From NCBI GenBank assembly GCA_000004985.1, contig GG738891.1: a stretch of DNA of 64,000 nt, one strand, 5' to 3'. The position numbers and the translations under genes are program-made. Positions 19,039 to 52,622 of this stretch are shown piece by piece. This stretch comes from Naegleria gruberi. Taxonomy: Eukaryota. Each line of letters opens with the position of its first letter. The first letter of the stretch is position 1. Below the pieces are notes generated by a model. The model was not told the origin of the DNA. It saw only the letters and a list, made by a program, of their open reading frames with translations, and ran no database searches.

Positions 19039-22000
19039 TTAAAAGTTCATTGTCATCTTTTTCTTAGGTTGTTTGGCAGCAACTTTCTTTTCTGTCTTGG
19101 CAACAGCTGCTTGTTGTTGTTGTTTTGCAAAATCTTGAATATCCAGTAAAACTGATGAAGGTAAGAGTTGTGAAGTGATTAAGGATTTGAATTGTTCTGG
19201 AGCAACTTTGGTCAATCTGTCAAAACATTGAACTCCAAGAAGGAAGAGTTTGGAAAGGGCATTATTCTTGGCAAATTTAGTTACTTTCACTAACATTGGT
19301 ACAATCATACTCAAATAGCTTTGAATACCTTGAGAAGGTGTATTCAATTCAGCCAAAAGTGAAAAACCAGCCAACAAAATATTGATTGCTGGAGGAGCAA
19401 TCTTATCTGCACCATTAACAACAAGAAGTCTCGATTCTGATGAAAGACTCAGAACAATTTCTTCAGCAATCTTCATAGAATAGAAAACTGAAAGTTTTGC
19501 AAGACCGTTTCTAGCCAAGAATAGAATACCATTCTGAATACCATAAAGTAAGTTGAAAACATTGTCAACTGATTTGGCTTGTTTGATTTGATCAGTTCCG
19601 TGAAGAATTTCAATGTCAGAAGTAATTGCCTTACGAATAGCTGAGACAACATTTTCATGGATTGAAACATCAGAACATAGAGATGAAGAAAGGAAAATAA
19701 ATAATAATTCAACTTCTGGATTGGTAATTAGCTTTCCAGAGGCAACTCTACCAATAATATTTTCAATAGAGGCACTGATTGCTACTTGCCAAATACTGAA
19801 TTTCTCTTCAGCAGAGATGGATTGATCTTTGGATTCACTTTCATTTCTCAATTTTTCGCTTACCTCAATTATGGCTGTTGTGGTATCTAGACCCATGTTT
19901 GATTTGGTGAATTGAATGACTCTACAGGTTGTGTACAACAAAGTTGGGACTACAGCACCAGTAATTGACAAGCCAAAGACTTTAACAATTGTTTTCAAGG
20001 ATTTCATACTATTAGCAATTAAAAGTTTTTGTTCCTTTTCCAATTCAAAAGATCCTAGTTCAAATTCACTGTCTTGTTTGAAGAGATATGGGAAATGAAG
20101 TCTCAATGGCTTTAAGCAAACTTCAGTACTGGTTGTCACAACTGCTTGAGCATTGACTTGATCACTTGAAACAAAGAGAGAAACATCTACACTACTCAAA
20201 ATCTTTTCCAAAAGTTCAAGGCATGCATTATGAAGTTGGAAATGTCTGACTCCTTGAATTTCAATCAATAGCAAGAATACTTCGAAAACTGCTCCAGGAG
20301 CATGGTGATGTTTTTGGAATTGTTTGGTGGCCATTATTTCACCAATAGCTTTAATACACTTGATAGCCTTATCCACATTTCTCTTGTCAGTTCCATATAA
20401 TCCAGAAATTGCAAGACCAATCAATAGAGAATCATTATAGTCAATATCTTCAGCTACAGCTTCAAGACCAGCCTTCTCCTTTGCAAGCGTAATACCATTC
20501 AAAACACTAGCATAAGCTTGCTTGTAGTAGTAGAGTACATTTCTTTCGGTACCTAAAGCAACATAGTAGAATCTGTTAAGATTTTCTTCAGCTTGTTCAT
20601 AAATTGGAGAATATTGATCAGAACTTGATCTGACCAAGATGTTGTCATCCTCTTCGTCTGTTACCACAATTGTCAAGTTGGCAAAATCTTGCAATAAAGT
20701 ATACCAACTAATAAATATATCCTTCATATTTGGTTTAAGGATTTCAATGAGTTCAGTGTTTTGAGTTTCTTGAGCAGCTACATAAATATCAGCAAGAGCA
20801 GCTAATACAGAAACCTTAATCATACAAGTAGTAACCTCACCGCCTGCATTAATAAATAACTTTTCATCAATAACATAATTTACAAGGTAGGAACACATTA
20901 TGGAAAGTAATTTGTTTTGATTTCTAAGCATCTTAGAAGGAATGATTATTGATGAAAGTTGACATGCAACATATACTAGTAGAGGCGAGTTGATTTGTGT
21001 GATAGTTTCACAAACAGCTGTTGTAAATCTAAGTGAATGTTGTTGAAGTAAAACTTCACATGGACTAACTGGATCAAGTACTTCTCCAAAGACATTGTTA
21101 ATATTAATCATTAACACAAGCCCAGCATGTTGAACTGAAATAGTTCCTTTGTTTGTTGCAATAGAACAAATATTGATTATTTTTTCCAAATGATTAACCA
21201 AACAATCCTTGTCAGTATTCTTTAGAGCAACAGCCGCATCAACATGATGTAACTCATCCTTGAGTGTTTCGATAAGTTGTTGTAAACACTTCATGGAGAA
21301 TACCTTTGTTTGCCAACTGAAGGCAACAACTACTGATTTTCTTTCAACAGGAGTATCATCCTTTTCATCAGTATCACTCAACATTACACTTTGACTCTTT
21401 TCTGCTTCTGCTATCTTAGTTTCTGAAGAAACAACTGTAAAAATCAAATTGACCCAATCCTTTGGTGGTATTAATTTGCTTGAAATTAAAGATAAAACAA
21501 TATTCTTAAAGTGATTTTCTTGGTTATTTCCAGAAACATAGCTATCATTTGAACTTTGCGAAAGTGATTGATAGGTGAGAGCTTGTGAAATACTAAAATC
21601 AATTGAATCAATGATTTGGAACAATTCTTCAGGTGAGAAGTATTTAGAAATAAGTTCTGGCCTTTGGTCACAAATAATCTTGATACATTGACCAATCTCG
21701 TTTTGTATGTTTTCTATGTACAATCTTTCCTTCTTTGTGGAGAGTACTTGCTTCAAATATTGAACAATCATTTCAAAATCAGAAATCATATATGGTGTAA
21801 AAATGATAGCTCTTTGCATCAGTCTAACAAATTCAATTAGTAATCCATCGGTAATATCCAATTCAGAGGTGGTTAAAGTGGCATTCATAATGTCAGTAAT
21901 AAAGTATTGGAAAATCTTATCGAATGGAAGATTTCTGAGTTGCAAAAGCTCTGGGCCCAAACCAATCAATGCTCGCATAATTTTACAAACTCCAGTCATA

Positions 22001-25000
22001 ATAGAGGTTGGAGAGTTTGGATTTTCAAAGAGAAGTAAGAACAAGTGTTGAATGATTGACTCAGTGTGAGGCACGAAGGCAACACCATTAGTCTCAATAG
22101 TCTGGTAAATTGATACGATTGAGCTCTTTTGAACGTCTTCTTCTATAATCTTTGAAAGAGCAAGCAAGAAGCTAACTGTTGATGGTAAGGAAGCTCTACT
22201 CTTAAGAGCACCAATGGCTCTATTGACTGAACCGAGAGCTAAAGCTAAACCAGATTTGAGGGCAATATTAGTAGTGAGGATCTTTTCCTGGCAACGCTTA
22301 ACAAGGTCATTGAGTAAAATATCTCCTATAAGTTTACCAAATGAGTGCATACATTCGGCAGCAGCAGCTCTCACAAATGAATCTGAAAACCCTAAAGCAG
22401 CATTCAGAATGGAATGTACTTGGGTGAAAAATTTGTGTTTCCTGTTTTCTTCAATATTTGTCTCTAAATTTCTGAGAATGCAATAAACAGAAGCAACAAC
22501 GTTACTGAAAATGCACAACCCAACATCGGCTGGTCCTGTTTCTTCATCAAGTCTACTTCTTAAAGGTGTTGATGATGGAGAGATGAAGTTATTGGCAAGA
22601 GCTGTTTTGATTTGTTGTACTAAATGTTCAATAATTTGGGTCTTGGAGTTTGGTTTGTGGTAAATAAATAATTTTCCTAACAATCTGATTGAGGAGTCAA
22701 CTAATCTGACAGCCAGTGATGGTAATTTCAAATAAATACTTTCAGAATAGAATAAATTAGAAATATTATCAAATAAAACACAAGCTGCATCTAAACTATC
22801 AACTGATATTGAGGTTACTTTGCTTTCGATTGCTTCCAATTTGACTTTAAGATCAACCATTGAATCAACAAGAGAAGTTCTAACTGGTACTGAATCTGTT
22901 GATGTAGCATCAGCCTCAGCAAATGCCATCTTGGTAACAAAATTGATGACGTGTCTATGTTGAGGTAATTGCAACTTGCTGTCAACAGATGGTACATATG
23001 CAAGCATTACTTCTGGAAGTTTTCCAATCAAGTTAAATAAATTCATCTTGAGTAATCTTATTGAGTATAACCCTATTGAAGTAGTAGATTTAAAGTTGGT
23101 AGGTAAACTAGAGAGCAACTCAATGGTGGAGGAAATATATCCGAAAATCAAGTTCATCTTTTCTGGTGTGAGTAAAGGAGCACAATTAGTAATAAAAACT
23201 TGCAATGAAAGAAGGCAGCAAGCTCTAGATCTGAGTCTATATGTAATAATTTCCTCCTTAGTTGTATAAGTAATAGGTTCTTCATACTTTCCACTCATTG
23301 TTTCATTCCATAATTCGAGAATCTTCTCTAAATTATTCTTTACCCAGTAATCATTGAGAGAAAGAACTGAACAGATAAGTATCCAACAAGATTCTTGTCT
23401 CTTCATAGATACATAAATATCATCAATATCTCGATGAGCTGCTTTACCAAGCAGACATGCTGTATCTAAAACAGCAGAGCACAAACTATGAGAAATAGTC
23501 AAGCTATGTTTGGCAGATACAGTAATTAACGCAGCCAAGGCACATGAATGTCCATGTAACGAATTAGCATAATTTTTGATATTTTCATCCCTCTTGGAAG
23601 CTGTTGCTAATTCACCATGATCAATTTGTACCATGTTCATCAAAGCACTAATTAGACCTGTTGAGTGTGATGGTAAAGCTTCCATGAGTTGCTTAATTGT
23701 CAATGCTCCAACATATCTCACATTTTCAGATGGATATTTAAGACTACATAAAATAGCATCCAAAATAGAATCTCTTTGTTTAGAAACACATTCTCCTAAA
23801 ACTCTACATAATTTTCCTATACAATATAGCACAGTTGTAAAACAACTCTCATTGGACAAAACTGTATGGCCAACAACTAATTGAACTAAATTTGATAGTA
23901 AAGAAAGTCTTCCTGCTTCTGTTAATCTATCAATAAGACCAATACTAATCATTTTAGTTACATAGGTTTGGGCATATTTCTTGTCATTGTTTGTAATGTT
24001 GTTTGAACTGATCGAGATGAGTCCTGTTAAATTTCTTACAATTGTATCCATATTGTTGATAATGACTTCCTCTGGGCATTTAGAGAAGAAATAAATGATA
24101 CATGATGAAATAGCTGCTCTGAGCTCTTTTGTTTGTCCAATTCTTGTGAAAGGTGCTGTAGCAACCATGATGGCATACAGACAAGTGTATTCTTTAGAAC
24201 GTTTGGCTGTACTTCTTGGAGTTGTTCCACCATCTTCATTACCTACGGAATCATAAACACCTGTGTCACTCATACATGATAGTAATAATTGTGCTGTGCT
24301 ATGACTAAACACTTCTCTAACTTCTTCATCCGTTTCCTCCATAGCTTTCAAAGAAATATTAAGAGAAGTTTCAAAGATTTTTAGATTAACATCCGAAGGT
24401 CTCGCATAATTGATAGCAACAGCAAGCATAAGTTGCCCACAAGCTACTTTCACTTGTTTGTTTGTTTCTTGTGTTCCTTTCATAATTAATTTCAAGTATT
24501 CAGTCCACTCATTCTTCACTCTCTTTTTAGAGTTTGCTACAAACTTTGTACATAATAATAACATTGATTCTTTCATCGGATCATCCTATAATAATCATCA
24601 AATATTAAATCCAAATAACAATAAAGTTATAACAATGTTTAAATAATTAATCAAATAATAAAGTATAATAACAATAAATCTATAATCTAACAATTAAAAA
24701 CAACTTACATTCAACTTCCACAATCGTGTAAAGAGGCCATTCATGATCAAATTAAATAAACTTGGAACAAGATGTGATTGTATCGAATAGGCCTCTCCGA
24801 GTATATCCAATAAACAGGAAATTTCGTTCAACTTTTGTGGATTTCTAGCAAGATTGGAGTGTTGTTCAAGTGATTGAATAATACGACTTGATCCGGATGG
24901 AATCAACGATGTTGGATTTATCCTATAAAATCTATTAAAACATCTACACAAAAGTCGTTTCGTGAGAGAAGGATTGCCAATATTTGTCAGAAAAGACACT

Positions 25001-27208: not shown

Positions 27209-29077
27209 TTAGTATTCAAAGCTTTGTACCAGGTTTTCTTCGTAAAGATCTTCCTCTTCTTCGAAACCATCAAACATTCTTCGAGAGTTAGATTCCTCAA
27301 TGTATTCATCCATTCCCACATTTACTGTACAAACTCTGCTGGGTATTGATTGTGAGACACTACTACTCTTATTGACATATTCCTCATCTTCTTCAGTTAA
27401 GCTGGCTAACATTGTGTTTCTTTCAATAAAACTGTCATGCTTTGATCTTTTTGGCTCCATATGGTCTTCATCCAACAGCACAATATCATCATCTTCAAAT
27501 AGTTGAGGATTATATCTCTTTTCTTCCTTAAATTTATAACTATTAATCGTCTTGATGCTCTTTCTTGGTGGGTATTGTAAGGAAAATTCTTCATTTGCAA
27601 TTTCTTCTTCCAGCTCATTGGATCCTTCTTCCTCTTCAATTTCCTCGTCACTAAAGTCTGTTTTTCCAAACAAGTCACTATTTGTATCCTCTTCATCTTC
27701 GTCTTCGTTATCCATTCCTCTAAATAACGTGTTCTTAGATGGTGTTGATCTAGAATCTTGTAACTTTACAGAGGTCAAACTCTTTTCCAGATTTGAGATG
27801 TTGTCATATGATTTTTGAATTGACTTTTTAGAGAAAGCTTCTGGAGGAGGCTGATAAAGAGGAGAATCGTCCAATTCATCGCCAATATCTTCCTCTGAAA
27901 TAATAATCATGTCATCATGAGAAGCAGAAGCTTGATAATGTTCTGGATGGTACTCTTCCTTTGGAGGTTTTTTTAAAATTCTTAATTCCTCTATTGAATA
28001 GTGTTGTGTGTCTTCTTCCAAAATATCGTCTTGTTCCTCTCTGTTTTCATACCTAGATATTTGAGAATCATTTGGGATATTGCTATGAGAAATTAATAGT
28101 ACATGATTTTGTTGCTTATTGGAGCTTCCTAGTTTGGATTGAACTTGACTCTTGTTGTTTTGTTTTGCAGTTTTGGTAATTGGTTTGGCTCCTTGCATGA
28201 CAAGAGCTTTGGAATTGGTTGGACTGGTGGTGTTTGGAGTTGTTATCATTCTTGGTAGAGCTGTTTGTGGTTTAGGTTCAGTTAGGAATGATGATTGGTC
28301 CAGTATCGATTCAGACATGTCAATATTGGTTGTGTTAGGTCTGTTTGAAGTTTTTGCCATTCTCCTTCCGAAGGCAATATGTGGTTTATCTTTTGATGTA
28401 TTCAATGGTTTCTCAATGGCGAGTGGTTTCTTCTTCAGAGCTAACTTTTCTTCTTCTGTCAGATATGAAGATGCATCTATCATGCATACGTTATTATCTC
28501 CCATATGTGTAAATGCCAATTTCTTCGGTATGAGTGCCTCCGTGACAGGATTCTGTCTTAGGGAGTATATTTTCCTTAACGTACAAGCTGGTCCAATACT
28601 AATCCTATCCATGCAATAGTACTCTTCCTTATCATTGAATGACATGGATGTCAGTTCTTGTAAATCAAAACATAAATTCATCCACTCTCCACTTTTTACA
28701 ACATCAGAAATTGGTATTTGCGTATGCAGTTGTGTCTTGGTAACAGTTTTAAAACTACTAGAGAAAATCAATCTCTTTTTGATTTGTTTTTTATCCCGAA
28801 TATGTATTTCTATTTGAAAAACTGATCCGATACAACATTGTAGTACTAAATATCGATGCATAATTTGTAGTGTTGATGTTGTCGATTTCGGAAGCTCAAT
28901 GTTCGTTGTATGAAAGGAACTTCCCTCAATACAAACAACAAACGATTTAACCTCTTTATCAAATTCTTTTTTTACCATCTTTGTATTCTTAATTGCAATA
29001 TTAGCAAGAGCACTCGATCCCTGAGTTGACAGCAATTCAATACTATCACCCGAACTTGAGGCAAGATTTGTCGACAT
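27209..29077 (-). CDS. CFAP20-domain (DUF667) protein with a long acidic/Ser-rich C-terminal extension, CFAP20DC-like, 622 aa
   Basis: The N-terminal 170 aa align with CFAP20/BUG22: FVVCIEGSSFHTTNIELP and YLVLQCCIGSVFQIEIHIRDKKQIKKRLIFSS. Confidence 0.6.
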   Translation of the reverse strand: MSTNLASSSGDSIELLSTQGSSALANIAIKNTKMVKKEFDKEVKSFVVCIEGSSFHTTNIELPKSTTSTLQIMHRYLVLQCCIGSVFQIEIHIRDKKQIKKRLIFSSSFKTVTKTQLHTQIPISDVVKSGEWMNLCFDLQELTSMSFNDKEEYYCMDRISIGPACTLRKIYSLRQNPVTEALIPKKLAFTHMGDNNVCMIDASSYLTEEEKLALKKKPLAIEKPLNTSKDKPHIAFGRRMAKTSNRPNTTNIDMSESILDQSSFLTEPKPQTALPRMITTPNTTSPTNSKALVMQGAKPITKTAKQNNKSQVQSKLGSSNKQQNHVLLISHSNIPNDSQISRYENREEQDDILEEDTQHYSIEELRILKKPPKEEYHPEHYQASASHDDMIIISEEDIGDELDDSPLYQPPPEAFSKKSIQKSYDNISNLEKSLTSVKLQDSRSTPSKNTLFRGMDNEDEDEEDTNSDLFGKTDFSDEEIEEEEGSNELEEEIANEEFSLQYPPRKSIKTINSYKFKEEKRYNPQLFEDDDIVLLDEDHMEPKRSKHDSFIERNTMLASLTEEDEEYVNKSSSVSQSIPSRVCTVNVGMDEYIEESNSRRMFDGFEEEEDLYEENLVQSFEY

Positions 29078-31292: not shown

Positions 31293-33254
31293 TTGGAGAG
31301 ATTTTCAGCAAAAGAAAAAATGTTTACAAACGACTTACTGTTTGTTGCATTGTGTCTTGTTTTCGCTCTTTATGTTGGTCAATTTGTCCATGTGACTAAT
31401 GGCCAAAATTGTTCAGCATCAAGTTTAGTTTCGAATTTCGCTATTGATCAAGCTGCCAATGTTCAATGTCAAATTGGCTACGCTCCAGACAAACTTTCAT
31501 TACAATGTAGACCCTATGACACTGTATTCGATGAAAATTATGGTAAACTTTGTAATGTCTCAAGTGATTGTCAATTAAGTTTCGTTTGTAGTGAATTGTC
31601 AAAGATTTGCGTTCCTTCCAAAACCAGAAGATTAGGAGACGCATGTCTTGCAAGAGAAAGTTGTGTAGAGCCATTCAATTGTTTTAACGGAGTTTGTTCC
31701 ATTGTAAAGGAAAGCAGTGATAGAAAATTTGGTGAAAAGTGCAATTTCATTGATTATGCCAATAATACAAAGCACTTATGTAATCCTACCTTTGCATGTC
31801 TAGCTGTTTCTTATCCAATTTATCACTGTTTTGAAAGAATAGAATCTGATATTGGTGGATTTTGTGGTCAGAACTCAACTTCTTTCCAAAGTGGTTCTTG
31901 TAAAGTGGGAATGTGCAATGCCATAACTGAACAATGTGTTCCATATCTTACCAATGCAACAGAAGGTCAAGGTTGTGAAATTATGACACCAAATTCGTAT
32001 ACCACATGTGGTTCAAATTACGAGTGCAGATTAGGAACGTGCTATTTGAAAGTAGATGCAGGACTCGATGAAACATGCTTATATTACAATTCTACTTCAT
32101 ATACATTCGGGGTCTGTAGGGAAAAGCTAACATGTTCAGGTGGAAAGTGTATTGGATTGACAATTTCACCACTTGGTGGATATTGTGGTCAAAACTCAAC
32201 TGGAAGATATAACTGTGGCAATGGATACTGTTTCCTTGAAAAGTGTGTACCTTATGTGAGTTCTCTAATAGGAGGAAAGTGTGATGTAACTGATTCTGAA
32301 GGTTTTTTCACATGTAAGAATGATGGTACCTCACCATATTGTTTCAACAACATATGTAGGACAAGAGGAAAGTTGGGCGAAAGCTGTCAACACAAATCTG
32401 ATTCCTGTACCTCTCAATTAATTTGTAGGTCCATTGGAGGAGCTCCAAAAACATGTGAAAATTATGCACAAAAGAATGAAAACTGCTCATCCACTTCTGA
32501 TTGTGCTACTGGATTATTGTGCCTGTATTCAAAGTGCACTAATTTGAATGGAAAATCAGTGGGAGAGGCATGTTTCTCCAACTCTGAATGTGATTCTGGT
32601 TTGTGTTACAATAGCATTTGCTCACTGAATTACAATACCTCTTCATGCAGTACTGATTCTGATTGTAATATTTATGAAAATTCCAAGTGTTCCTGTGGTT
32701 CTGGAAGATCTTCATCAGATTCCACATTTGGAACTTGTGCTGGTTTGAAGAGATGCAATGTTTACCAACTCATTCTTGAAATCTGTCTTTCCAATTATGG
32801 AAGAGGAGCCTCTGTAACAACTATTTTTGACAGACACAGCTCCATTCACAAAGATTGTGCCAAAGAATTTTCTCAATATTATTCATGTTTGAGAATTGGA
32901 ATTAGTGAAGCAGGTAATGTTCAATCTCTTTCAATTTCTGGTTTAGATGTCAACACTCAAGTTAAAGATCCTGCAGTTGTCAAGATTGCCCAATGTAATG
33001 CCTTTTTAAGTCACCATCTGTCTGTTTGCTCTGGATTTGGTGATTGCATTGCTGATGGTGTTTGTAAATGTTATCCAGGATATACTGGAACTTATTGTCA
33101 AACAATTTACACACCTCAAAAATCATCAATTATTCCACCAACAAATTCAATTGGTGGGGAAAACCGCACTGCCCTACTATCTGAAGGAAAGAAGAATACC
33201 TATTCAAACTTGTTGTGGATTGTCTTAATTTCATTGATTTTTATTCCACATTAA
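31293..33254 (+). CDS. cysteine-rich type-I membrane or secreted protein, 653 aa, with a signal peptide, repeated CxxxC/EGF-like modules and a C-terminal transmembrane helix
   Basis: Hydrophobic N-terminus and many regularly spaced Cys residues. EGF-like CxCxxGxxGxxC lies near the C-terminus, followed by a terminal transmembrane helix LLWIVLISLIFIP. Confidence 0.55.
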   Translation: MERFSAKEKMFTNDLLFVALCLVFALYVGQFVHVTNGQNCSASSLVSNFAIDQAANVQCQIGYAPDKLSLQCRPYDTVFDENYGKLCNVSSDCQLSFVCSELSKICVPSKTRRLGDACLARESCVEPFNCFNGVCSIVKESSDRKFGEKCNFIDYANNTKHLCNPTFACLAVSYPIYHCFERIESDIGGFCGQNSTSFQSGSCKVGMCNAITEQCVPYLTNATEGQGCEIMTPNSYTTCGSNYECRLGTCYLKVDAGLDETCLYYNSTSYTFGVCREKLTCSGGKCIGLTISPLGGYCGQNSTGRYNCGNGYCFLEKCVPYVSSLIGGKCDVTDSEGFFTCKNDGTSPYCFNNICRTRGKLGESCQHKSDSCTSQLICRSIGGAPKTCENYAQKNENCSSTSDCATGLLCLYSKCTNLNGKSVGEACFSNSECDSGLCYNSICSLNYNTSSCSTDSDCNIYENSKCSCGSGRSSSDSTFGTCAGLKRCNVYQLILEICLSNYGRGASVTTIFDRHSSIHKDCAKEFSQYYSCLRIGISEAGNVQSLSISGLDVNTQVKDPAVVKIAQCNAFLSHHLSVCSGFGDCIADGVCKCYPGYTGTYCQTIYTPQKSSIIPPTNSIGGENRTALLSEGKKNTYSNLLWIVLISLIFIPH

Positions 33255-33390: not shown

Positions 33391-34635
33391 TTGACGAGTA
33401 GTCTATTCTTGTCACAAAAATATTTACAACAAGAAATCAAAAAAAAAATGTTGATATTACTGATTAGAATTGCTTTGGTGGCACTAGTCTGTTTGTTATG
33501 TTTAAAATTCGGTATTGCTTCACCTTCATACTTGATCGCTCCATCAGTATTTATTATAGCTCTTGATTTGTTCTATCACGTTAATCAAGAAAGAGACGAA
33601 ACAAGACATGATGAAGATGAAATAGAAAATGAATCAGTTGATGATGATAAACTTATTCAACAAGTTATTACACAAGAAGAATCTCATCAACCTGAAACTA
33701 ATGTTGAAAATAGTTTAGACGCCAGTTTACCAACAGAAACTAGTGACCATCCATTGGAGGACTTTGAAGAGCCACCTGTCAATGTGTCAGATACAAATAA
33801 TGAAGATATAAAAGGTAAAGAAGAAATTGTTTCGTCAATTTCGTTGTTGGATCTGCAAGATGAGCCTTTACAGATTGTTGAGCAAATAACAGTCACACCA
33901 TTAAATCATGATGTTTCTTCTGAAGAAGAATCTAAAGAATTGCCATTCACCATTTCAAAGAAACTAAAAACTTCTATTGAATATTTAGAAGAGGAAGAAC
34001 TTCAAAAGATTGAAGCCAATGCTGAACACTTTGAAAAAGTTGACATTCTTTTGAAAACTGATCTGAATTTCATTGAAAGAGCTGTAAATGTTAATTGTAA
34101 TGTTTTAAAGTTGCTGAAGGAAGATGAACTTTTAACTGTTTTAGAAAGATATGAATACTTGTTTGCGCAACTTGACAACATATACCAGAAGAATGTAGAA
34201 TTTGTAAAGAAAGTGCTGGAAAGAAATCGCCAAGTTTACTTGTACTTAACAGATGTTGATACTATTGCACTATTGTTAGAGGAAGAAATTATTTCTGGAA
34301 GATCTTTGGATGATTTTGTCATAAGCTCCAACTTGCTAAAACGTGTCATTCTCAAGTTGACAAAAGATCCAAAATTTTACATTGATCACAGAAATGAAAT
34401 ATTATCTCTACTGGGTGGTGATCCGTGGTTACATAGATGTTTTTTCCCATTCATTAGTGATGATAAGGAAATTGTCATTGAAGCAGTAAGGGAGGATGGT
34501 TTCAATTTACAATATGCTTCTGATCGATTGAGAGGTGACAGAGATGTTATTATAGTAGCACTAAGGAACAATCGTTTAGCAAGAAATTTCATAAGAAGGG
34601 ATTTCTATGAAAAGTATGGAGAACCTTGCTTTTAA
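33391..34635 (+). CDS. membrane-anchored protein with an acidic region and C-terminal DUF4116-type repeats, 414 aa
   Basis: An N-terminal transmembrane helix and a D/E-rich tract. C-terminal repeats such as VREDGFNLQYASDRLRGDRDVIIVALRNN are typical of DUF4116. Confidence 0.45.
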   Translation: MTSSLFLSQKYLQQEIKKKMLILLIRIALVALVCLLCLKFGIASPSYLIAPSVFIIALDLFYHVNQERDETRHDEDEIENESVDDDKLIQQVITQEESHQPETNVENSLDASLPTETSDHPLEDFEEPPVNVSDTNNEDIKGKEEIVSSISLLDLQDEPLQIVEQITVTPLNHDVSSEEESKELPFTISKKLKTSIEYLEEEELQKIEANAEHFEKVDILLKTDLNFIERAVNVNCNVLKLLKEDELLTVLERYEYLFAQLDNIYQKNVEFVKKVLERNRQVYLYLTDVDTIALLLEEEIISGRSLDDFVISSNLLKRVILKLTKDPKFYIDHRNEILSLLGGDPWLHRCFFPFISDDKEIVIEAVREDGFNLQYASDRLRGDRDVIIVALRNNRLARNFIRRDFYEKYGEPCF

Positions 34636-34714: not shown

Positions 34715-37700
34715 TTAGTTCAGAAAGTAAGGAAGAGCTAACAAATCTGAAGCATTTGGTCGTTGATTTGCATCCTTTTGTAACATTTGTATCACAATTT
34801 CAATTAAATCATTCGAATATTCTCCATTAATTGATTCTTTCATTTGATTTGTTAGAATATTAACGGCACTTCCTGATTGATTTCCCAAGAGTAAATTACT
34901 TATCGAAGTTGAATAATCTCTTGTCATGATTTGGTAAATTGAAACACCCATTGAAAATATGTCAGTGTTAAATGAATAAGAACTTCCAAGAGCAATTTCA
35001 GGACTCATATCTTTACAATCTGGGTGTTAAATAGACCAATTATGTAAAAACTTACACAGTGGAGTTCCAACATAGGATTGACCTTTCATTTCTTGAAACT
35101 TTTTTGCCAATCCAAAATCTGCAATTACAATTTCAATTTTTTCTTTTGATAATTTCTTAATAAATATATTGGTTGGCTTAATATCTCTATAATTAACAAA
35201 AATATATCAAAAATTAAAGAATAATGTCTAACATACCTATGAATAATAGATAAAACATCATGAACATATTTCAGAGCACTCAAAGATTGTTTCAAAATTT
35301 GTTTCACAATTATTTCACTACAATTCTCTTTCAAAAATCTTGTCAAATCACCACATTCATAATAATCCATATCAATACAAAGTAAATTATCACTAGTAAT
35401 AAAGTAATCATTCACTTTGATAATATTTGGATGATTGATATTACTCAATTGAGATGCTTCTTTCATAATACTATTTAAATCTGTGAATGATTCAAATTTA
35501 ACAATTTTAACAGCTTTGATTTGATTTCCTTTCTTGGAATCGTTGGCTTTGAATACACTTCCAAATGCTCCTTGACCAATTCTTGTTATATTACTATATC
35601 TGGAAAACGTATCTTCGGTATCAGAAGTAACTGAACCCATCGATGATGAAATAATTCTTGATGATTCTGTTGGGAAATCTGATAATTCAATAATTTCAGT
35701 ATCTATTTTTGCAATTTCAACATTCTTATTCTTCTTTCTCTTTAACGATAACATGACTATTACAATAATAATTATTACAATAATTGTAATAATCAATAAA
35801 GTACCAACAATTGGTACTACAATAGAAATAATGAGAACAGTGGATGTGTCAACCGATGACGCCTTCTTAATTTGACAAAATTCTCCTTCAAAACCCTCAT
35901 TACATTTACAAGTATTGGTTTGGACACATTGTCCATTTCCATTACAAACATTTGAATTTGAAGAGAGAGTTCCATTACATTGTATAGGTTGACAATTACT
36001 TCCATAAAACCCTTCCAAACATACACAGGTATTATTCCATGAATTAAATGCTGAATTCTCACCACAAACTGGATAAATTTTTCGAATAAGTTTTCTGTTG
36101 TCAAACAAGAAAATTGAACCATCACTTTCCTCATATTCAACACTTGTTAAGAAGGAAACGAATGAAGTATACGTTCCTTTACCATCTCCATTGAATTTTG
36201 GATTTTCAAGTCTAACACCAGCAATATCCACAAGTAAACCTGTTTCTTTCTCATACATTCTAACAAGAGTACTGTCCAAAATAATGATATCACCATTTCT
36301 TTTTTGTTTCATAGCATAAATTTTTTCAAGCAAAGAGATACCAGCAGGCAGATTATTACCTGAATATCCACTATCTGAAGTTCCTGCAATTGTTCGCAAA
36401 TACAATTCATTTTCAGACATTATCTCAATTTTTTTAACACTAGTCGCAGTAGAGAAATAGATAGAACTTCCTTGAATTATAATATTGGTTATTGTACCAG
36501 GTTTTGTTTGATTAGTAATAGGTCCATCAGGTGAATCATTTCCGAATGTGAATTGGGCAACTCTTGTAATCATTTGAGTTGATATTTCATACTTCGCAAT
36601 GATAAAGAGAGTTGCTATAAATAAATCACCATTTGTTTCATTGACAGCTAGATAGGTATTACTTAATGGGAGAGTTGTATCAAGTCCCTTAACATTAAAA
36701 GTGAGAGTACCACATCCTTTTCCAATAATTCTTTCGAATTTCATTGTCTCTGGATCTATCCTTAATACTCTACACGCCTCCTTAACATAGATTTTCCTAT
36801 CAAAATTTGAAAATATCATAGAAGAAGCAACGTAACCTAAAGAGAGGAAATTAGGTTCATAAATATACGTATAAGGTACCATTATAGTACTTGGGCTCAA
36901 TGGGGTAGTAATACCTGTTTTTTCATCATATTTCTTCAATGATTTCGTATCTATAAAGTAAATTACCTTATTTAGCGGATCTCTTGCAAATGATGAAGCT
37001 ATTTGAATTCCAACACTTGGATTTAATCCAGCAATAGTTGAAATATTACCATTGGAAACTTGTGAAATGTAATTTGTACCTGTGAGCAATATTTTGGTTG
37101 GTTCATAACAATCGACTCTCTGAATTTGTCTGTAAAATACACATTTCACTATGTTTGAAGAATTTGTAAAATACTTACAATGCCGACTCCATTACTGGAA
37201 TATCTTCTCCACTATAACCAACAACTTCGAATGACGCATTGGAAATATTAATGCTATCCAAACCTGCAATTCTATTCAATGAAAAATTCTCAATATTCAA
37301 TTCGAATAATTTTGATGTCATTCCAATATAGAATTTACCTTCATAACAAGAAAAAAAAGTATAACCAGGTAAATCTCGACTGTACAATTGAAAAGATTGA
37401 TTACTATAATGAATAATTTCATAAAATGTTATTTGACCGTAGTATCCAAAGATAGAAGTACTGTTTGGATATCTATAATTGGGAATAACACAAAATCCAT
37501 AACTTGAAAAATATGATTTAAAAGGTATAATCGTTTGTTGATAAATCATGTTTTTGTAATAATGAAAATAACCATTAACATCTAATATATAAATTGATGA
37601 ATTAGCAAGAGAATTTCCAATTACAGAAATGGCTTCTCCATAATCTGATAATTGTGAAAAATTTCCATTTTCCATATTTAAATAGTACAGGCCTAAATTT

Positions 37701-39072
37701 GGACTAAGTTGTGATAAAATCAATAATTCACCGCTCTCAAGACAATGTAGTTCCCTTATTTGTTGTAAATAAATTCTTTGAGGAATATTTGAATAAGTTA
37801 AAAGTCTGTCACTTCCAAATACAGTAGTCATTTTTCCATTGGAAACTTTTCTAATAATATTTAATTTTTCAACAAAATAAAATTCATTCTTGTACATAAA
37901 AGGATAATTAACATTGCCAGTTTCATACATTTTCAAAGGTGAAATATTTTCACCATACGGATGATTAACTATTCCACCAGATAGAGTTGAAACCATTCTA
38001 TTTTGTAAATTAATCATTCTAAGACAATTATTCGACTTGTCAGCAATAATAATTGAATTCTGATACAGTAATAATGAAGATGGTTCATAAAATTTAATAT
38101 TCAATGAAGAATATTCTTCCAAATCACCTGAATATCCACTGCTGAATGAAGAACTTCCAATAAAGAGCTTAGTTTCACTTGATTTTGATAATTTCATTTG
38201 TAGAAAGTTGTTAGTTTGTGAGGAGGTGTAAATTTCTCCTTGTTCTGTAACAAATATTCCAAATCTTGACAAATTTAGTACTATTTCATAAAAAAGACTT
38301 ACAAATTAGATTGAGGTGAATTTTGATCAACTATTCTAAACTTTCCATTTTCATCAACTGATCTCACTCTATCAGCATCAGTAAAATAAACAATTTCATT
38401 CTTTCCATTCGAAACAACGTATAAACTCTTTGGTGAATTCAAAATCAATGAAGTTCCGTCCGCTCCGTCAATTTCCTGTTGAATTCCACTCAAATATCCA
38501 CCACCTGCAATGATTGAAAGTTTCTGTGTGGAAATTTCATACTTTTTAATGAGATTATTTCCAGTATCTGCAATGTAAATATTTCCGTTCTTTGTTACAA
38601 ACACTCCTTGTGGTTTGTTGAATGAATATTGAAGAGAAGAAACTAATTTAGTTGAATTCGAAACCATTCGAATCTTGTCATTTAAAGTATCTGCAATATA
38701 CAAGTCACCATTTAATGGATTTTGAGAAATTGAAGTTGGTGTATTAAATAGAGTTTTTAAATTTGAATAACCATCACCATTAAATCCACTCAACCCAAAT
38801 CCTGCATAAATTTCAACAATTGACATGTCGACTATTCTAAAAATCAAATGCCTTCCAACATCTGACACAAAAATATCATTGTTCAAACCAAGGCATAACC
38901 CTGTTGGTAATTGCATGTATGCATCCCGAATAGCAACTTTATCATAATTATTATTCACACCAGCCAATGTTTGAGTTTGAAAATATTCAACTTTTGACAG
39001 ACCATGGCAGCAGGAAGAAATTAATAAACATGTAAAAAAGATAAGAATCTCCTTGGTTGGCAGAGGTACCAT
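34715..39072 (-). CDS. receptor-type Ser/Thr kinase of about 1391 aa, 5 exons: signal peptide, multiple NHL-like beta-propeller repeats, an EGF-like module, one transmembrane helix and a NEK-like kinase domain
   Basis: Exons 38303..39072, 37179..38264, 35237..37129, 35056..35186 and 34715..35010. Introns are 38, 49, 50 and 45 nt with GTAAGT or GTATGT donors. The transmembrane helix is IISIVVPIVGTLLIITIIVIIIIVIV. Kinase motifs are GQGAFGSV, VAVK-like AVKIV, HRDIKPTNIF, DFGLAK and GTPLYMSPE, which is NEK-like. The GTPLY/MSPE join restores the motif. Confidence 0.7.
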
Positions 39073-48821: not shown

Positions 48822-51800
48822 TTAGTGGGTTTCCTCAGTTTGAGCAGTGGCAGCGCCAGGTTGTGTGGTTGGTTGTTGTGGTTCGACATATTCTTCGAAT
48901 TGGTGAGGTTCGAATGTCTTGACATAGGTAGTACGGATGAGTGGGTAAGGTAAAATTTCTTCAAAGAAACTGATATCCAAATGTTTGGATGTCTTGACAG
49001 TTCTATCAAGGAAAATGCAACAAGTATCGTATTGCTTTTCATAACCCTTAGTACCATTCATGTGGAGAAGAATCATGGCAGCAAACTCGGCGAATCTCTT
49101 GTAATCCTTTTCAAGTTCAGCAATCTTATTGGACTTGACACTGTGAACAGCTTGAATCAATCTGTGGAATGCAGTAATTGACAAGTGGGTATTGTTATAC
49201 CAACCTTCAAGATTGACATCATAGACGCTGTCCTTTTCTTTCCAAGTGGTATTGAGAATAGTGAGAGCAGCAAAGGCCAATGGTAAGACTTCCCAAACTT
49301 GAGATCTATCAACGAGTGGAGACAACTTCAATCTGAGAGGGTGATCAACATCAGAGAAACCACAATCAGTAGCCAAAGCGTCAATTGGAAGGAACTTGCC
49401 ATCACCATAATAATTTCTGGAATATTGTTCGTAAGCACTGTCAATGACATCATAAATAGCTGGGGCATTTCTTCTAACTGAAGATTGAAGAGCAGATTGT
49501 AAACATTGTCTGAATTCCAAAATACCACCAAGTTGAATGAGGAGTGGCATGAGTGTTTCGAGAGGAACAAGAGTTTGTCTGACCTTCTTATCCAAAACAA
49601 ACTTTTCATCATAGAGTTTGCTTTCAATATCCTTGAGGGCATTGTTGGCTTGGGACAAAACTTCTCTGATCTTTTCACTTCTTACATAAATTTCATCCAA
49701 CAAGGATTGATTCAAAGCTCTGAAACCATACGGACCAGTCAAGGTGATGAATGCCTTCAATTCATTGTAATCCAAGTAATTTTCAACATTGTAACTTTGA
49801 ATTGGAGTATTGGCAGTTGAGATGAAGGTTTGTCTGTTTGGATGGAAGAGAGTCTTATACTTTTGTGGATCTGAAACCAAATCAGTGAACCATTGTGAGT
49901 AGATTGAAATCAAGTTGGCTGGTTCTGTTGTTTGAACAACACCGAATGGTGAATCAACATAATTCAAATGCACAAAGTTATCCAAGAATGAGTTCAGAAC
50001 CAATTCTTCAGTATTGATATTGACACATTGTTCAATAATCTTTAAGGATGACATGAAAGAGTGTAATTCACTCAACAATTCTGATGGAGAAATGAACTTT
50101 GGAGTAAGAGCGTCATTCTTCATTTCCTTAGCTGTCAAATCAATAGTAGTGGCAATTCTCTTGATATACTCGGCAATGTATTCTTCGAGAACAGTTCTTA
50201 AGTATTCAACAGGGTAGAAAACATTGTCATACACAACGATTTCGTCGTATCTAGATAATGAGTACAACAATTGAGTGACATTTCTTTCCAAATCACGCAT
50301 ATCATTGATAGAATTATTTTCAAAGTGACTTTCGACACCTGGAACTGCTGGTTCTTCGATATATTGCTTGTTCTTACCATATCTACGGAGGATAGTTTGG
50401 GCAGCAACATCACCACCGATTTGATGAGTTAACATTCTGTAACCATGAGAACTGTTCAACAAATCAAGACCCTTTCTAATTCTGTCGACTAATTGTCCGA
50501 GCATTTGTTCAGCAAATTGAACTGATTGTTGACCAATTCTGTTTCTGAGGGATGGATTAAGTTGAGGGTGAATATTATCAGCATATGTGTTAAGAATTCT
50601 GATAAAAGCAGTCGAATACAAAGGTTGACTCTTTGAACCAATAAGACCTTCAGAGAAAATCTTATCAACATCAGCTCTGTAGAAGTACAATTGCTTGAGG
50701 GATCCCTTTTCGACCAATTCATCATATAAACCATCGACGTGCTTTGAGAATACAACAATCTTGGTCATGGTATTAAACAAGAGTGTCATTTCAGGCAATG
50801 TTTGTTTGAATTGATAACCGGACAGGAATGATTCAACTCTCTTCCAATTCAAACGCATGGCTTCAAAATCTTCACTATTTTGAATATCTGACATGATTGA
50901 TTCCATAATACCAGTAACTTTGGCAAGTTCAAGCTTGGCTTTATGTTCTTCGATCAATTGCCTGGCCTTATTATAATACAATCCACGAATAATCTTGAGA
51001 GAGTATTTTCTAATAACATCTCTGTGTTGCACACAAACGTACATCATTTCATCCATGAGGTAGATCATTTCACTAATCAAAGTTTCCTTAACTTCCTTGA
51101 ACTTCTTTTGAGCAGACTTTGGAACGTATCCATTGTGATGGAAATACCACATGATTTCATTTCTGGCCATTGAAATAGCAGCCAAAACCAAGTTGAATTT
51201 TGGTCCAAGCAAACCAGGTTGATCCTTCATCATGTTGAGCAAGGACTTTAATTGCAATCTGAGATAATTTCTCAATTCCTTGTGATAGTCATGACATTTT
51301 TCAGCAGCAATTTCTGCAAGTTCCTTCAATGATTTCTTTTCCTTTTTCAAATCTCCAAACTTTTTAATCATGACATATTCTTTGAAAGGATCGTGAATGT
51401 TGTAAACTTCATCACCGTAGAGTGGAATGACCAAGTTATTGGCCAAAACTCTTTGTAAGAGAATTTCATAACAACGAAGAGGAGCATCCTTGTCCTTCTT
51501 CTTGCTGACTACAACTGGTGTCATTCTTATTTGTTTTTCTGGGGCACGAGCAAGTGCATCAGGACAACAAGCATAAATAATAGCAACCCATTCTACGATA
51601 TCTTGATAACAATTCAAATACAAGTATGTTTCATCAACAGCAGGGAATGGAATTCTATCTGGTTCAGACAACATTTCCAAAGGTCTTTTAACATTCAAAC
51701 CACCAAAAGTACCTCTTTCAAATGCTGGAATGAGAGCAATGAGTGCTTTACCAATTTGATCTTGAATTGTGAACCATTTTTCTTGGAAACGAGGAATTGG

Positions 51801-52622
51801 ATCAGCAAAATCTTTAAACAATTGCCAAACTCGTTGAATGTTTGGTTCTGCTTGACCGTTCAATTTCAAATAACTCAAGTTTAACAAACAAACAATAAGT
51901 TCCTTGTCCTTAATTCTATTCAGCAACAAGATCAATTTCACATATCCAACCAACATTTGCAAATAATCATAACATGTTAAAAAGTTGACATCTTGTAAAA
52001 AATCAATATTGGCATTTGTAGACATTTCTAATATTGTTTGTTGAGCATGTTCTGTCCATTGTAACAATTCTTTAAATGTTAAATAAATTGGATGTACTTG
52101 ATTAAACAGTGTTGTCATGTTATTCAATGCCCAATCAAAGCCTTGAACCTTTTCCAATTCATCAATGGCAATATGTGGAGCATCTTTTAATAATTTAGCG
52201 AACATTTTCTTCATATCCACAGGAAGTGTGGACTTCATAATATCAGGTTTTAAATCATTATCACCAAGTTCATTCTTTATCGTATATAAACGTTGGAGGA
52301 GAGCCTCAGAATGTTGTTTTAAAACAAAAAGCTAAAATAGTTTTGTTTCGAATATATTTTGCATCAAGTAGTAGTGCAGGATAGCGTTTGATAAATAAAA
52401 ATTGAAGAGAGGAGGGATCATAGTTAGTATAAATTATTATGAATCAGAGAGTGATAAATCCATTCAATCCACACAGTGAAAAATAATTTTCATCATCATC
52501 ATTAGAATAATTAAAACGATTGTCGTTTAATACGAAATAAATTGTTGATCAACAATAGAATAATAATGTTAAAGAGGAGATGATGTGTTTGCTCTGCTTA
52601 CCTTCTCTGCTACCTTTGCCAT
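48822..52622 (-). CDS. NCKAP1: NCKAP1/NAP1/Hem, SCAR-WAVE complex subunit, about 1176 aa, 2 exons. The first exon is absent from the ORF track.
   Basis: A 21-nt exon 1 at 52602..52622 (MAKVAEK, GTAAGC donor), then a 270-nt intron 52332..52601, then exon 2 at 48822..52331. The join reads MAKVAEK LFVLKQHSEALLQRLYTIKNELG, against human [25 protein letters not shown]. Internal [30 protein letters not shown] matches human [30 protein letters not shown]. Confidence 0.85.
52432..52512 (-). ncRNA. candidate intronic box C/D snoRNA inside NCKAP1 intron 1
   Basis: On the minus strand: AATTATT cta ATGATGATGATGA (C box) ... TTTATCACTCT CTGA (D box) ttcat AATAATT. A 7-bp terminal stem flanks a 5' C box and a 3' D box about 60 nt apart. 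The host intron is about 5 times longer than typical introns here. Confidence 0.35.

Follow-up and report, generated by a model that had tools for sequence, protein, structure and literature searches.

Gene model of the locus

The stretch of DNA analysed here comprises 64,000 nucleotides of Naegleria gruberi contig GG738891.1 (assembly GCA_000004985.1) and is referred to below as the window. Its minus strand carries, at 34715..39072, a gene predicted to encode a single-pass receptor with an extracellular array of NHL-type propellers and a cytoplasmic protein kinase. The gene is NAEGRDRAFT_71566, which sits on a 339-kb scaffold, and its product is 99% identical to P0001 (XP_002673404.1, EFC40660.1, UniProt D2VRF4), deposited as a "predicted protein". 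Three large minus-strand open reading frames (ORFs) are found at the locus, at 38299-39072, 37175-38272 and 35125-37149, together with a short one at 34715-35008. A first-pass annotation, made from the letters of the window, had joined the three adjacent ORFs and two short exons into one five-exon gene.

As a test of this gene model, candidate splice junctions on the minus strand were located, and combinations of acceptor sites were joined and translated. Only one combination yielded a single open frame, of 1391 amino acids (aa) with one terminal stop; the other combinations tried gave 86-122 stops. The coding region obtained in this way consists of five exons and 1391 codons with the stop at 34715-34717, contains no frameshift or internal stop, and is collinear with the N. 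gruberi paralog P0320. An in-frame TAA lies ten codons 5' of the ATG at 39072.

Exon 1 (38303..39072, aa 1-257) encodes the predicted signal peptide and the larger part of propeller 1. It is followed by intron 1 (38265..38302, 38 nt, GTAAGT...AAG), a junction that is also present in the public model P0001. Exon 2 (37179..38264, aa 258-619) is separated from exon 3 by intron 2 (37130..37178, 49 nt, GTAAGT...CAG); with an alternative acceptor at 37149 the reading frame is lost. Exon 3 (35237..37129, aa 620-1250) encodes the end of the middle domain, propeller 3, the EGF-like module, the transmembrane and juxtamembrane segments and kinase subdomains I-VIa. Intron 3 (35187..35236, 50 nt, GTATGT...TAG), whose junction is again common to P0001, splits the HR/D motif of the catalytic loop. 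Exon 4 (35056..35186, aa 1250-1294) encodes the catalytic loop, DFG and the activation segment, and exon 5 (34715..35010, aa 1294-1391 and the stop) encodes kinase subdomains VIII-XI. Between them lies intron 4 (35011..35055, 45 nt, GTAAGT...AAG), which the public model leaves unspliced. The four introns are thus 38-50 nt long, start with GTAAGT (three) or GTATGT (one), and all end in AG. Splicing restores the motifs HR/DIKPTN and GTPL/YMSPE. The frame, the coordinates, the length and these motifs are exactly those of the first-pass annotation, whose gene model is upheld by the single frame and by the collinearity of the paralogs.

The 1391-aa model aligns from Met1 to the C-terminus with the paralogs P0320 (1394 aa, 54% identity) and P0317 (1380 aa, 47%). 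The alignment with P0320, which was annotated independently, spans the hydrophobic N-terminus, the membrane segment and the C-terminal ...LL.L.YF. Across the position of intron 4, the sequence GTPL(Y/F)MSPE(I/V)ALGSSYSFNTDIF runs through P0002, P0317 and P0320. Further evidence came from paralog ORF fragments in other assemblies. P0171, P0172 and P0188 stop exactly at the equivalent of the exon 2 boundary (...GENIP..SAL), and P0126, P0169 and P0170 all enter the last intron from the same codon; the intron positions are therefore conserved in the family. Taken together, frame and homology point to one real five-exon gene of 1391 aa, correctly modelled.

Topology and ectodomain

From the N- to the C-terminus the predicted protein is laid out as a signal peptide, an NHL propeller, a divergent middle domain, an NHL-like propeller, an EGF-like module, a membrane helix, a Ser-rich juxtamembrane segment and a kinase domain. 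The same order of signal peptide, NHL propellers, EGF-like module, single membrane helix and C-terminal kinase had been read in the first-pass annotation, and Pfam, hydropathy and the paralogs agree with it. In the Pfam search that it had proposed, the NHL, EGF and Pkinase domains all scored above the gathering threshold.

Only two hydrophobic segments were found in the hydropathy profile, a signal-like one at residues 8-26 and a membrane helix at ~1048-1080. The predicted signal peptide (aa 1-24, MVPLPTKEILIFFTCLLISSCCHG; 39001..39072) corresponds to the first of these, and a hydrophobic N-terminus also starts the paralogs P0320, P0317 and P0322. The predicted transmembrane segment (aa ~1046-1080; 35746..35850) has a Kyte-Doolittle peak of 3.62 at 1063-1081 and is followed by the stop-transfer sequence LKRKKNK. 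The ectodomain includes 15 N-x-S/T sequons, and the EGF cysteines would lie outside and LKRKKNK inside. The most likely topology predicted from the sequence is that of a type I single-pass receptor, and the paralogs are concordant with it.

Propeller 1 (aa ~25-355; 37970..39000, including intron 1) is recognised by Pfam, by a blade profile, in AlphaFold2 models and by Foldseek. Pfam identified NHL with 57.2 bits (cut-off 20) and TEN_NHL with 29.0 bits (cut-off 27.1). A hidden Markov model of the blade, built from canonical Naegleria NHL repeats, gave six matches, at residues 54, 109, 151, 211, 259 and 319, all within residues 54-350. In Foldseek, propeller 1 matched the designed protein Pizza6 with a TM-score of 0.88 (root-mean-square deviation 3.0) and the NHL domain of SOQ1 with a TM-score of 0.74. 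The sequence and the structural model indicate a canonical six-bladed NHL propeller. No significant match to the blade model was obtained past residue 350, so the number of blades in the second and third modules is not countable from sequence alone.

The middle domain (aa ~356-700; 36886..37969, including intron 2) is very divergent and was recognised as a propeller-like, all-beta module through paralog matches and AlphaFold2. Its sequence matches in an exhaustive HMMER search were confined to Naegleria paralogs. A word-indexed search with residues 355-976 returned two weak NHL matches, and the paralog fragments surfaced only with exhaustive HMMER. When modelled with the paralog alignment, the middle domain formed four-strand blades with a mean per-residue confidence (pLDDT) of 73 and a predicted TM-score of 0.70. 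Propeller 3 (aa ~701-972; 36070..36885) is NHL-like, with HMMER matches of residues ~725-975 to bacterial multi-NHL proteins at ~26% identity and E-values down to 1e-31 in the exhaustive search, and an AlphaFold2 pLDDT of ~77-90.

The whole ectodomain was also modelled with a mixed bacterial and Naegleria alignment, which gave a mean pLDDT of 68. Confidence in this model was above 90 for residues ~50-355, 77-90 for ~720-950 and 28-70 for ~360-715, and all segments were built of beta strands in fours, with ~17 blades in total. Foldseek matches of the ectodomain were a teneurin-like protein, the two-propeller sensor BT4663, LRP2/4/6 and Sevenless. In these models the ~950 residues of the ectodomain form three predicted propeller modules, namely a canonical NHL propeller, an unclassifiable middle module and an NHL-like third.

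A Cys-rich stalk (aa 973-1040; 35866..36069) connects the propellers to the membrane. It consists of a four-Cys half EGF followed by a complete six-Cys EGF-like module (C1003...C1037), in which C1003, C1014, C1020, C1026, C1028 and C1037 follow the six-Cys EGF spacing, CxC...G..G..C. The Pfam match to EGF_2 (residues 1010-1037) is marginal, with 24.4 bits for a cut-off of 22.1, and AlphaFold2 confidence there is low; EGF_TEN also matches. The stalk is conserved in P0317, P0320, P0169 and P0170. On the cytoplasmic side of the predicted helix, the juxtamembrane segment (aa 1081-1129; 35599..35745) carries a Ser-rich motif, ELSDFP..SS.IISSS.GS, and is 50-63% identical to the paralogs.

Kinase domain and its classification

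The kinase domain (aa 1130-1389; 34724..35598, including introns 3 and 4) was identified by its motifs and by a full-length match to Pkinase (PF00069), with 182.2 bits for a cut-off of 31.7 over profile positions 1-263 of 263. The catalytic elements found are GQGAFG at 1137-1142, K1160, E1176, HRDIKPTN at 1249-1256 (N1256), DFG at 1273-1275 and SPE at 1296-1298. DxKxxN is a signature of Ser/Thr-type kinases. The sequence is thus that of a Hanks-type RD Ser/Thr kinase with every catalytic residue intact, and it is predicted to be catalytically competent.

The first-pass annotation had called the kinase NEK-like on account of HRDIKPTNIF and GTPLYMSPE. Both motifs are present. Motifs such as HRDIKxxNIF and GTPxYxSPE occur also in eIF2-alpha kinases, and they are therefore not diagnostic of NEKs. 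Compared with solved structures as a single sequence, the kinase domain scored 102.4 bits with NEK1, 101.9 with ULK3, 101.8 with STK25, 100.4 with STK24, ~98 with CDPKs and 88 with NEK7. A profile of eight members of the Naegleria kinase clade placed STK24/MST3 first (129.9 bits), followed by NEK1 (127.9), STK25 (127.4), ULK1 (124.6), NEK2 (121.2) and NEK7 (116).

Two genuine NEKs served as controls. A fungal nimA orthologue scored 240 bits with NEK2, 168 with NEK7 and 167 with NEK1, and 125 with the first non-NEK; the environmental NEK1-like protein P0131 scored 223, 197 and 162 with NEKs and 123 with the first non-NEK. In these two controls NEKs stand ~40 bits above other families, whereas the Naegleria kinase has no such margin, and its membership of the NEK family is accordingly not established. 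The N-terminal-kinase layout of soluble NEKs is not found either, since the kinase ends the protein, after a signal peptide, ectodomain and transmembrane segment.

In a search of 5.8 billion proteins, identities above 49% were found only with proteins labelled N. gruberi or with environmental ENA fragments. The best-scoring proteins outside Naegleria were the ULK3/MARK-like P0129 (130 bits) and the NEK1-like P0131 (125 bits). Pairwise identity of the kinase domain is 68-85% for subclade A, 48-65% for subclade B and 42% or less for any outside kinase, being 30-42% with NEKs and 28-40% with ULK-like proteins. By these scores and identities the kinase is placed in a lineage-specific clade near the NEK, ULK and GCK-III region, not as a demonstrable NEK, and the NEK assignment of the first-pass annotation is not supported as a family membership.

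Differences from the public model

The public model P0001 is 1204 aa long and agrees with the 1391-aa model in introns 1-3. It lacks a signal peptide because its start is placed at Met83. It lacks kinase subdomains VIII-XI because intron 4 was missed, so that after GTPL it ends with ...GTPLCKFLHNWSI and a stop. Its membrane segment is also 16 residues (GTLLIITIIVIIIIVI) shorter, because a 48-nt segment of the form GTACTT...ATAG within the transmembrane coding region (35758..35805, minus strand) is removed as an intron.

The excised segment is in frame and contains no stop, and its donor, GTACTT, differs from the GTAAGT or GTATGT of the four accepted introns. At this place a hydrophobic stretch of 33-36 aa stays open and in frame in P0320, P0169 and P0170, and it starts with the same IV(V/I)P(I/V)V. 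Hydrophobic anchors of ~30 residues are also found in the unrelated Naegleria NHL-EGF proteins P0004, P0025 and P0026. Because the donor deviates, the paralogs keep the stretch open and other Naegleria anchors are similarly long, we favour the unspliced version, in which the segment is probably coding; given its donor and the open paralog equivalents, the 48-nt intron of the public model is considered unlikely. Spliced or unspliced, one plausible membrane helix followed by LKRKKNK remains. The transmembrane region is likewise spliced out of the deposited models of the paralogs P0002 and P0317, and P0002 loses its second EGF too. The 1391-aa model is better than the public annotation.

A family of paralogs in Naegleria

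Paralogs with the same architecture, which the first-pass annotation had proposed to look for, were found among the deposited N. gruberi models (P0320 and P0317). Exhaustive HMMER searches and cluster look-ups identified NAEGRDRAFT_81100 (P0320, 1394 aa), NAEGRDRAFT_71976 (P0317, 1380 aa), NAEGRDRAFT_74149 (P0002, 1223 aa) and NAEGRDRAFT_82237 (P0322, 1010 aa). The N. gruberi members of the kinase clade are P0001, P0002, P0317, P0320, P0121, P0122, P0123, P0125, P0127 and P0128; they represent ten or more loci and lie on nine scaffolds, P0317 and P0320 being on the same one. At least four N. gruberi members have the full architecture, and the Pfam set of NHL/TEN_NHL, EGF_2 and Pkinase is common to P0317, P0320, P0169 and P0170.

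The kinase domain is 72-75% identical to those of the paralogs, compared with 48-60% for propeller 1, 33-41% for the middle module and 34-47% for propeller 3. Judged by sequence, a conserved kinase with a divergent ectodomain is the pattern expected of receptors that share a conserved output and diversify their sensors.

Several relatives are deposited as kinase-only or ectodomain-only models. Kinase-only models of ~280 aa (P0121, P0122 and P0123) are probably truncated predictions, since their first residue is a Met that lies inside the juxtamembrane motif (SSMIISSS in P0320). P0322 includes the three-module ectodomain and a hydrophobic C-terminus, but both the EGF module and the kinase are missing. 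It may represent a receptor-like protein devoid of a kinase, either a decoy or a co-receptor, or another truncated gene model. Exon-shaped fragments of the family were also observed in ENA/Logan contigs of 0.8-4 kb from public metagenome or run assemblies (P0169-P0173, P0179, P0188, P0124 and P0126). At 90% identity or more, P0170 clusters with P0317, P0172 with P0320 and P0188 with P0322, which indicates Naegleria DNA in those samples, or other Naegleria assemblies.

Among the 330 proteins collected, the combination of NHL and kinase domains was restricted to Naegleria, where the kinase is C-terminal, and to one bacterial PknD-like protein, in which it is N-terminal. Neither N. fowleri nor N. 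lovaniensis yielded a protein of the N. gruberi kinase clade in the searches made, and a literature search found no published account of the family, its locus tags or its accessions. The architecture thus appears, by sequence, to be specific to Naegleria among the searched eukaryotes. The first-pass annotation had described it as unusual and as a lineage-specific innovation. The restriction to Naegleria bears this out, but the novelty is reduced by the multigene family already deposited, by other Naegleria proteins that join NHL-EGF ectodomains and a transmembrane segment to a TKL-like kinase, and by analogues in PknD and in Sevenless and the LRPs.

Genomic surroundings

The window is AT-rich, with a GC content of 0.30-0.36. 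Ordinary conserved eukaryotic genes flank the locus as single long ORFs, at 48822-52238, 19039-24576 and 27209-29077 on the minus strand and at 17283-18983 on the plus strand. The flanking products are NCKAP1/Nap1 of the SCAR/WAVE complex (1055 bits), HEATR5/Laa1, a CFA20-domain ciliary protein and a pantothenate kinase (Fumble), and a fucosyltransferase gene is also found in the window. There is no sign of a cluster of receptor kinases in the window. A tblastn search for a second copy within it gave none; the only match was a weak EGF match at 32991-33101, which is part of a neighbouring Cys-rich protein.

This neighbour, at 31293-33254 on the plus strand, is a 653-aa ORF encoding a Cys-rich and apparently secreted protein with a hydrophobic N-terminus, many CxxxC-type repeats and an EGF_2 match at 578-602. 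Its short hydrophobic tail, NLLWIVLISLIFIPH, which ends at the stop codon, resembles a glycosylphosphatidylinositol-anchor signal or a short anchor. It is a putative surface protein adjoining the receptor gene. Between the two lies a DUF4116-containing ORF (33391-34635, plus strand) that is convergent with the receptor gene. The two stops, that of the receptor being at 34715, are ~80 nt apart, so that two 3' untranslated regions and terminators have to fit into very little space.

Interpretation of the locus

In our estimate, with a probability of about three in four, the locus is a single N. gruberi gene for a type I single-pass receptor Ser/Thr kinase that belongs to a family of Naegleria paralogs. 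The propellers of such a receptor would recognise a ligand outside the cell, for which surface molecules on prey bacteria, on other cells or amoebae, or on the substrate are plausible candidates. This is a reasonable guess that would fit a bacterivorous soil amoeba. Once the ligand is bound, receptor oligomerisation would change, and the RD kinases on the cytoplasmic side would phosphorylate one another in trans on the activation loop (QEMKGQSYVGTP) and probably on the Ser-rich juxtamembrane segment; the signal would then be relayed onward to substrates of the kinase. We infer this sequence of events by analogy with established single-pass receptor kinases and RD kinases.

Several points weigh against this interpretation. 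The splice junctions are assigned by frame, consensus and homology, and the signal peptide and topology are read from hydrophobicity. The hydrophobic stretch of the transmembrane segment is unusually long (~33 aa), and the in-frame 48-nt GT-AG excision may shorten it. The model of the middle domain is of moderate confidence (pLDDT 73), and its Foldseek matches are to generic propellers, with TM-scores of 0.44 or lower and no specific propeller family. The count of paralogs was made on deposited protein models, which include several fragments. The ligand, oligomerisation, phosphorylation and downstream pathway are all inferred.

We also consider, tentatively, a broader scenario in which N. gruberi independently invented propeller receptor kinases by joining an NHL-EGF module of the teneurin or PknD type to a cytosolic kinase of NEK/ULK ancestry. 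These receptors would be convergent with PknD and with Sevenless/ROS1, their diverging propellers would form a repertoire of sensors for prey, conspecifics or substrate, and they would have no counterpart in animals or plants.

A rather improbable alternative is that a genuine NEK-family kinase was captured by a receptor ectodomain, so that an extracellular signal would be coupled to NEK-type outputs, such as those of the cell cycle or cilia. NEK1 is the top solved-structure match of the single sequence, the two loop motifs resemble those of NEK1 and NEK2, Nek2-like and nimA proteins are among the named matches, and the outside protein of highest identity, P0131 (37-42%), is clearly NEK1-like. 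Against this, ULK3, STK25 and STK24 tie with NEK1, NEK7 falls below the CDPKs, in the clade profile STK24 outscores NEK1 and ULK1 outscores NEK2, and the best-scoring outside match is ULK3/MARK-like. Real NEKs score ~40 bits or more over other families in the same comparison. The protein also ends with its kinase and has no C-terminal regulatory or coiled-coil region.

In another reading, the protein would act chiefly in adhesion or recognition, in the manner of teneurins, and its kinase domain would be a scaffold or pseudokinase. Teneurin-like proteins are the top matches of the ectodomain in both sequence and fold, Pfam returns TEN_NHL and EGF_TEN, a kinase-less NHL-EGF protein with a transmembrane segment (P0004) exists in Naegleria, and the paralog P0322 is apparently without a kinase. 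We regard this as improbable to a still greater degree, because the G-loop, K1160, E1176, HRD, N1256, DFG and SPE are all present and because the hallmarks of teneurins, the type II orientation and the YD shell, are absent. Moreover, the kinase is the most conserved part of the protein among paralogs (72-75%), which argues for selection on catalysis. Relatives deposited as kinase-only (P0121, P0122, P0123) and ectodomain-only (P0319, P0322) models might even suggest that the NHL and kinase ORFs belong to separate neighbouring genes, or that the locus is a decaying pseudogene. This is very improbable, as one uninterrupted exon holds propeller 3, the EGF-like module, the transmembrane and juxtamembrane segments and half of the kinase, namely its first half (ORF 35125-37149), 1391 codons are free of frameshifts and internal stops, and the full-length architecture is independently annotated in P0320 and P0317. 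The kinase-only models, for their part, start at an internal juxtamembrane Met, as expected of truncated predictions.

Should the receptor function proposed here be true, the family would represent one more independent way of linking a sensor outside the cell with a protein kinase, in a deep-branching, free-living amoeboflagellate (Heterolobosea, Discoba) whose surface signalling is largely uncharted. Tandem NHL propellers as the sensor of a kinase are otherwise known mainly from bacteria. A practical consequence concerns annotation. The public model of NAEGRDRAFT_71566 lacks the signal peptide, part of the transmembrane helix and the last third of the kinase domain, and several paralog models are similarly damaged; a census of the N. 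gruberi kinome or surfaceome built on the deposited proteins would therefore count too few receptor kinases and record fragments of them as soluble kinases. Single-pass receptor kinases and analogues elsewhere are known, and the proteins themselves were already deposited uncharacterised. What is new is an undescribed family specific to Naegleria.

Comparison with known systems

Single-pass transmembrane kinases of Ser/Thr/Tyr type that are specific to one lineage are familiar in protists, the Entamoeba TMKs being an example. A 2023 survey described protist transmembrane kinases as lineage-specific recombinations of sensor domains with more conserved kinase domains, in amoeba and oomycete clades (PMC10463195). 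As recombination by lineage is already the rule there (PMC10463195), the Naegleria family is only moderately surprising. The survey makes no mention of Naegleria or of NHL, propeller or EGF domains (PMC10463195). The Naegleria protein differs from these protist kinases in ectodomain type and kinase clade.

Within the genus, FDP41_001048 (P0025; also P0328) of the pathogenic N. fowleri and C9374_001816 (P0026) of its relative N. lovaniensis have a similar layout of signal peptide, NHL repeats, EGF modules, a long transmembrane segment and a C-terminal kinase. Their kinases differ, being TKL-like (CTR1 at 102 bits, then ITK, LCK and TAK1) and 20-28% identical to the N. gruberi kinase. Their ectodomains differ as well, with NHL repeats that are canonical throughout and many more EGF modules. 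Since P0025 and P0026 are TKL-like, kinases of different classes appear to have been joined to the NHL-EGF module in Naegleria.

With NEKs the Naegleria kinase shares the HRDIKxxNIF and GTPxYMSPE motifs and a nominal best match to NEK1 among solved structures, but it is predicted to be membrane-anchored, lies at the extreme C-terminus and scores on a par with ULK and GCK-III/STE20 kinases. The ectodomain recalls the teneurins, cell-surface proteins in which an NHL propeller likewise occurs together with EGF-like modules. TEN_NHL, EGF_TEN and EGF_Teneurin all match in Pfam, the best sequence match among solved structures is the teneurin-like 9ifo (67.7 bits), and the best Foldseek match is likewise teneurin-like. 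Teneurins, however, are kinase-less type II proteins that have a shell of YD repeats and, at the C-terminus, a toxin-like region (Tox-GHH/ABD). Pfam found no YD, RHS or toxin domains in the Naegleria protein, whose hydrophobic N-terminus leads directly into the ectodomain.

Sevenless/ROS1 and the LRPs resemble it in being single-pass proteins with several six-bladed propellers strung together with EGF-like modules, and LRP2, LRP4, LRP6 and Sevenless were fold matches. No sequence relationship to either group was detected. Their blades are of the YWTD/LDL-receptor class B type; Sevenless/ROS1 adds FN3 domains and a tyrosine kinase, whereas the LRPs are kinase-less.

Mycobacterium tuberculosis PknD (1rwi/1rwl) has the same three elements, an extracellular six-bladed NHL propeller, one membrane helix and a Hanks-type Ser/Thr kinase. 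Its sensor is a direct sequence match of the Naegleria ectodomain (33.5 bits), and the bacterial PknD-like protein P0009 was also matched. The Pizza designer propellers, one of which superposes on propeller 1, derive from the PknD sensor. The order of the elements is reversed in PknD and P0009, where the kinase is N-terminal (9-212 in P0009) and the propeller C-terminal, as against NHL repeats at 54-350 and a kinase at 1130-1389 in the Naegleria protein. PknD has a single propeller instead of three and no EGF module, whereas the Naegleria gene has introns and encodes a eukaryote-type kinase, for which no specific kinship with the PknD kinase was detected. By analogy of layout, bacterial PknD appears to be the closest functional analogue of the Naegleria receptor kinase.

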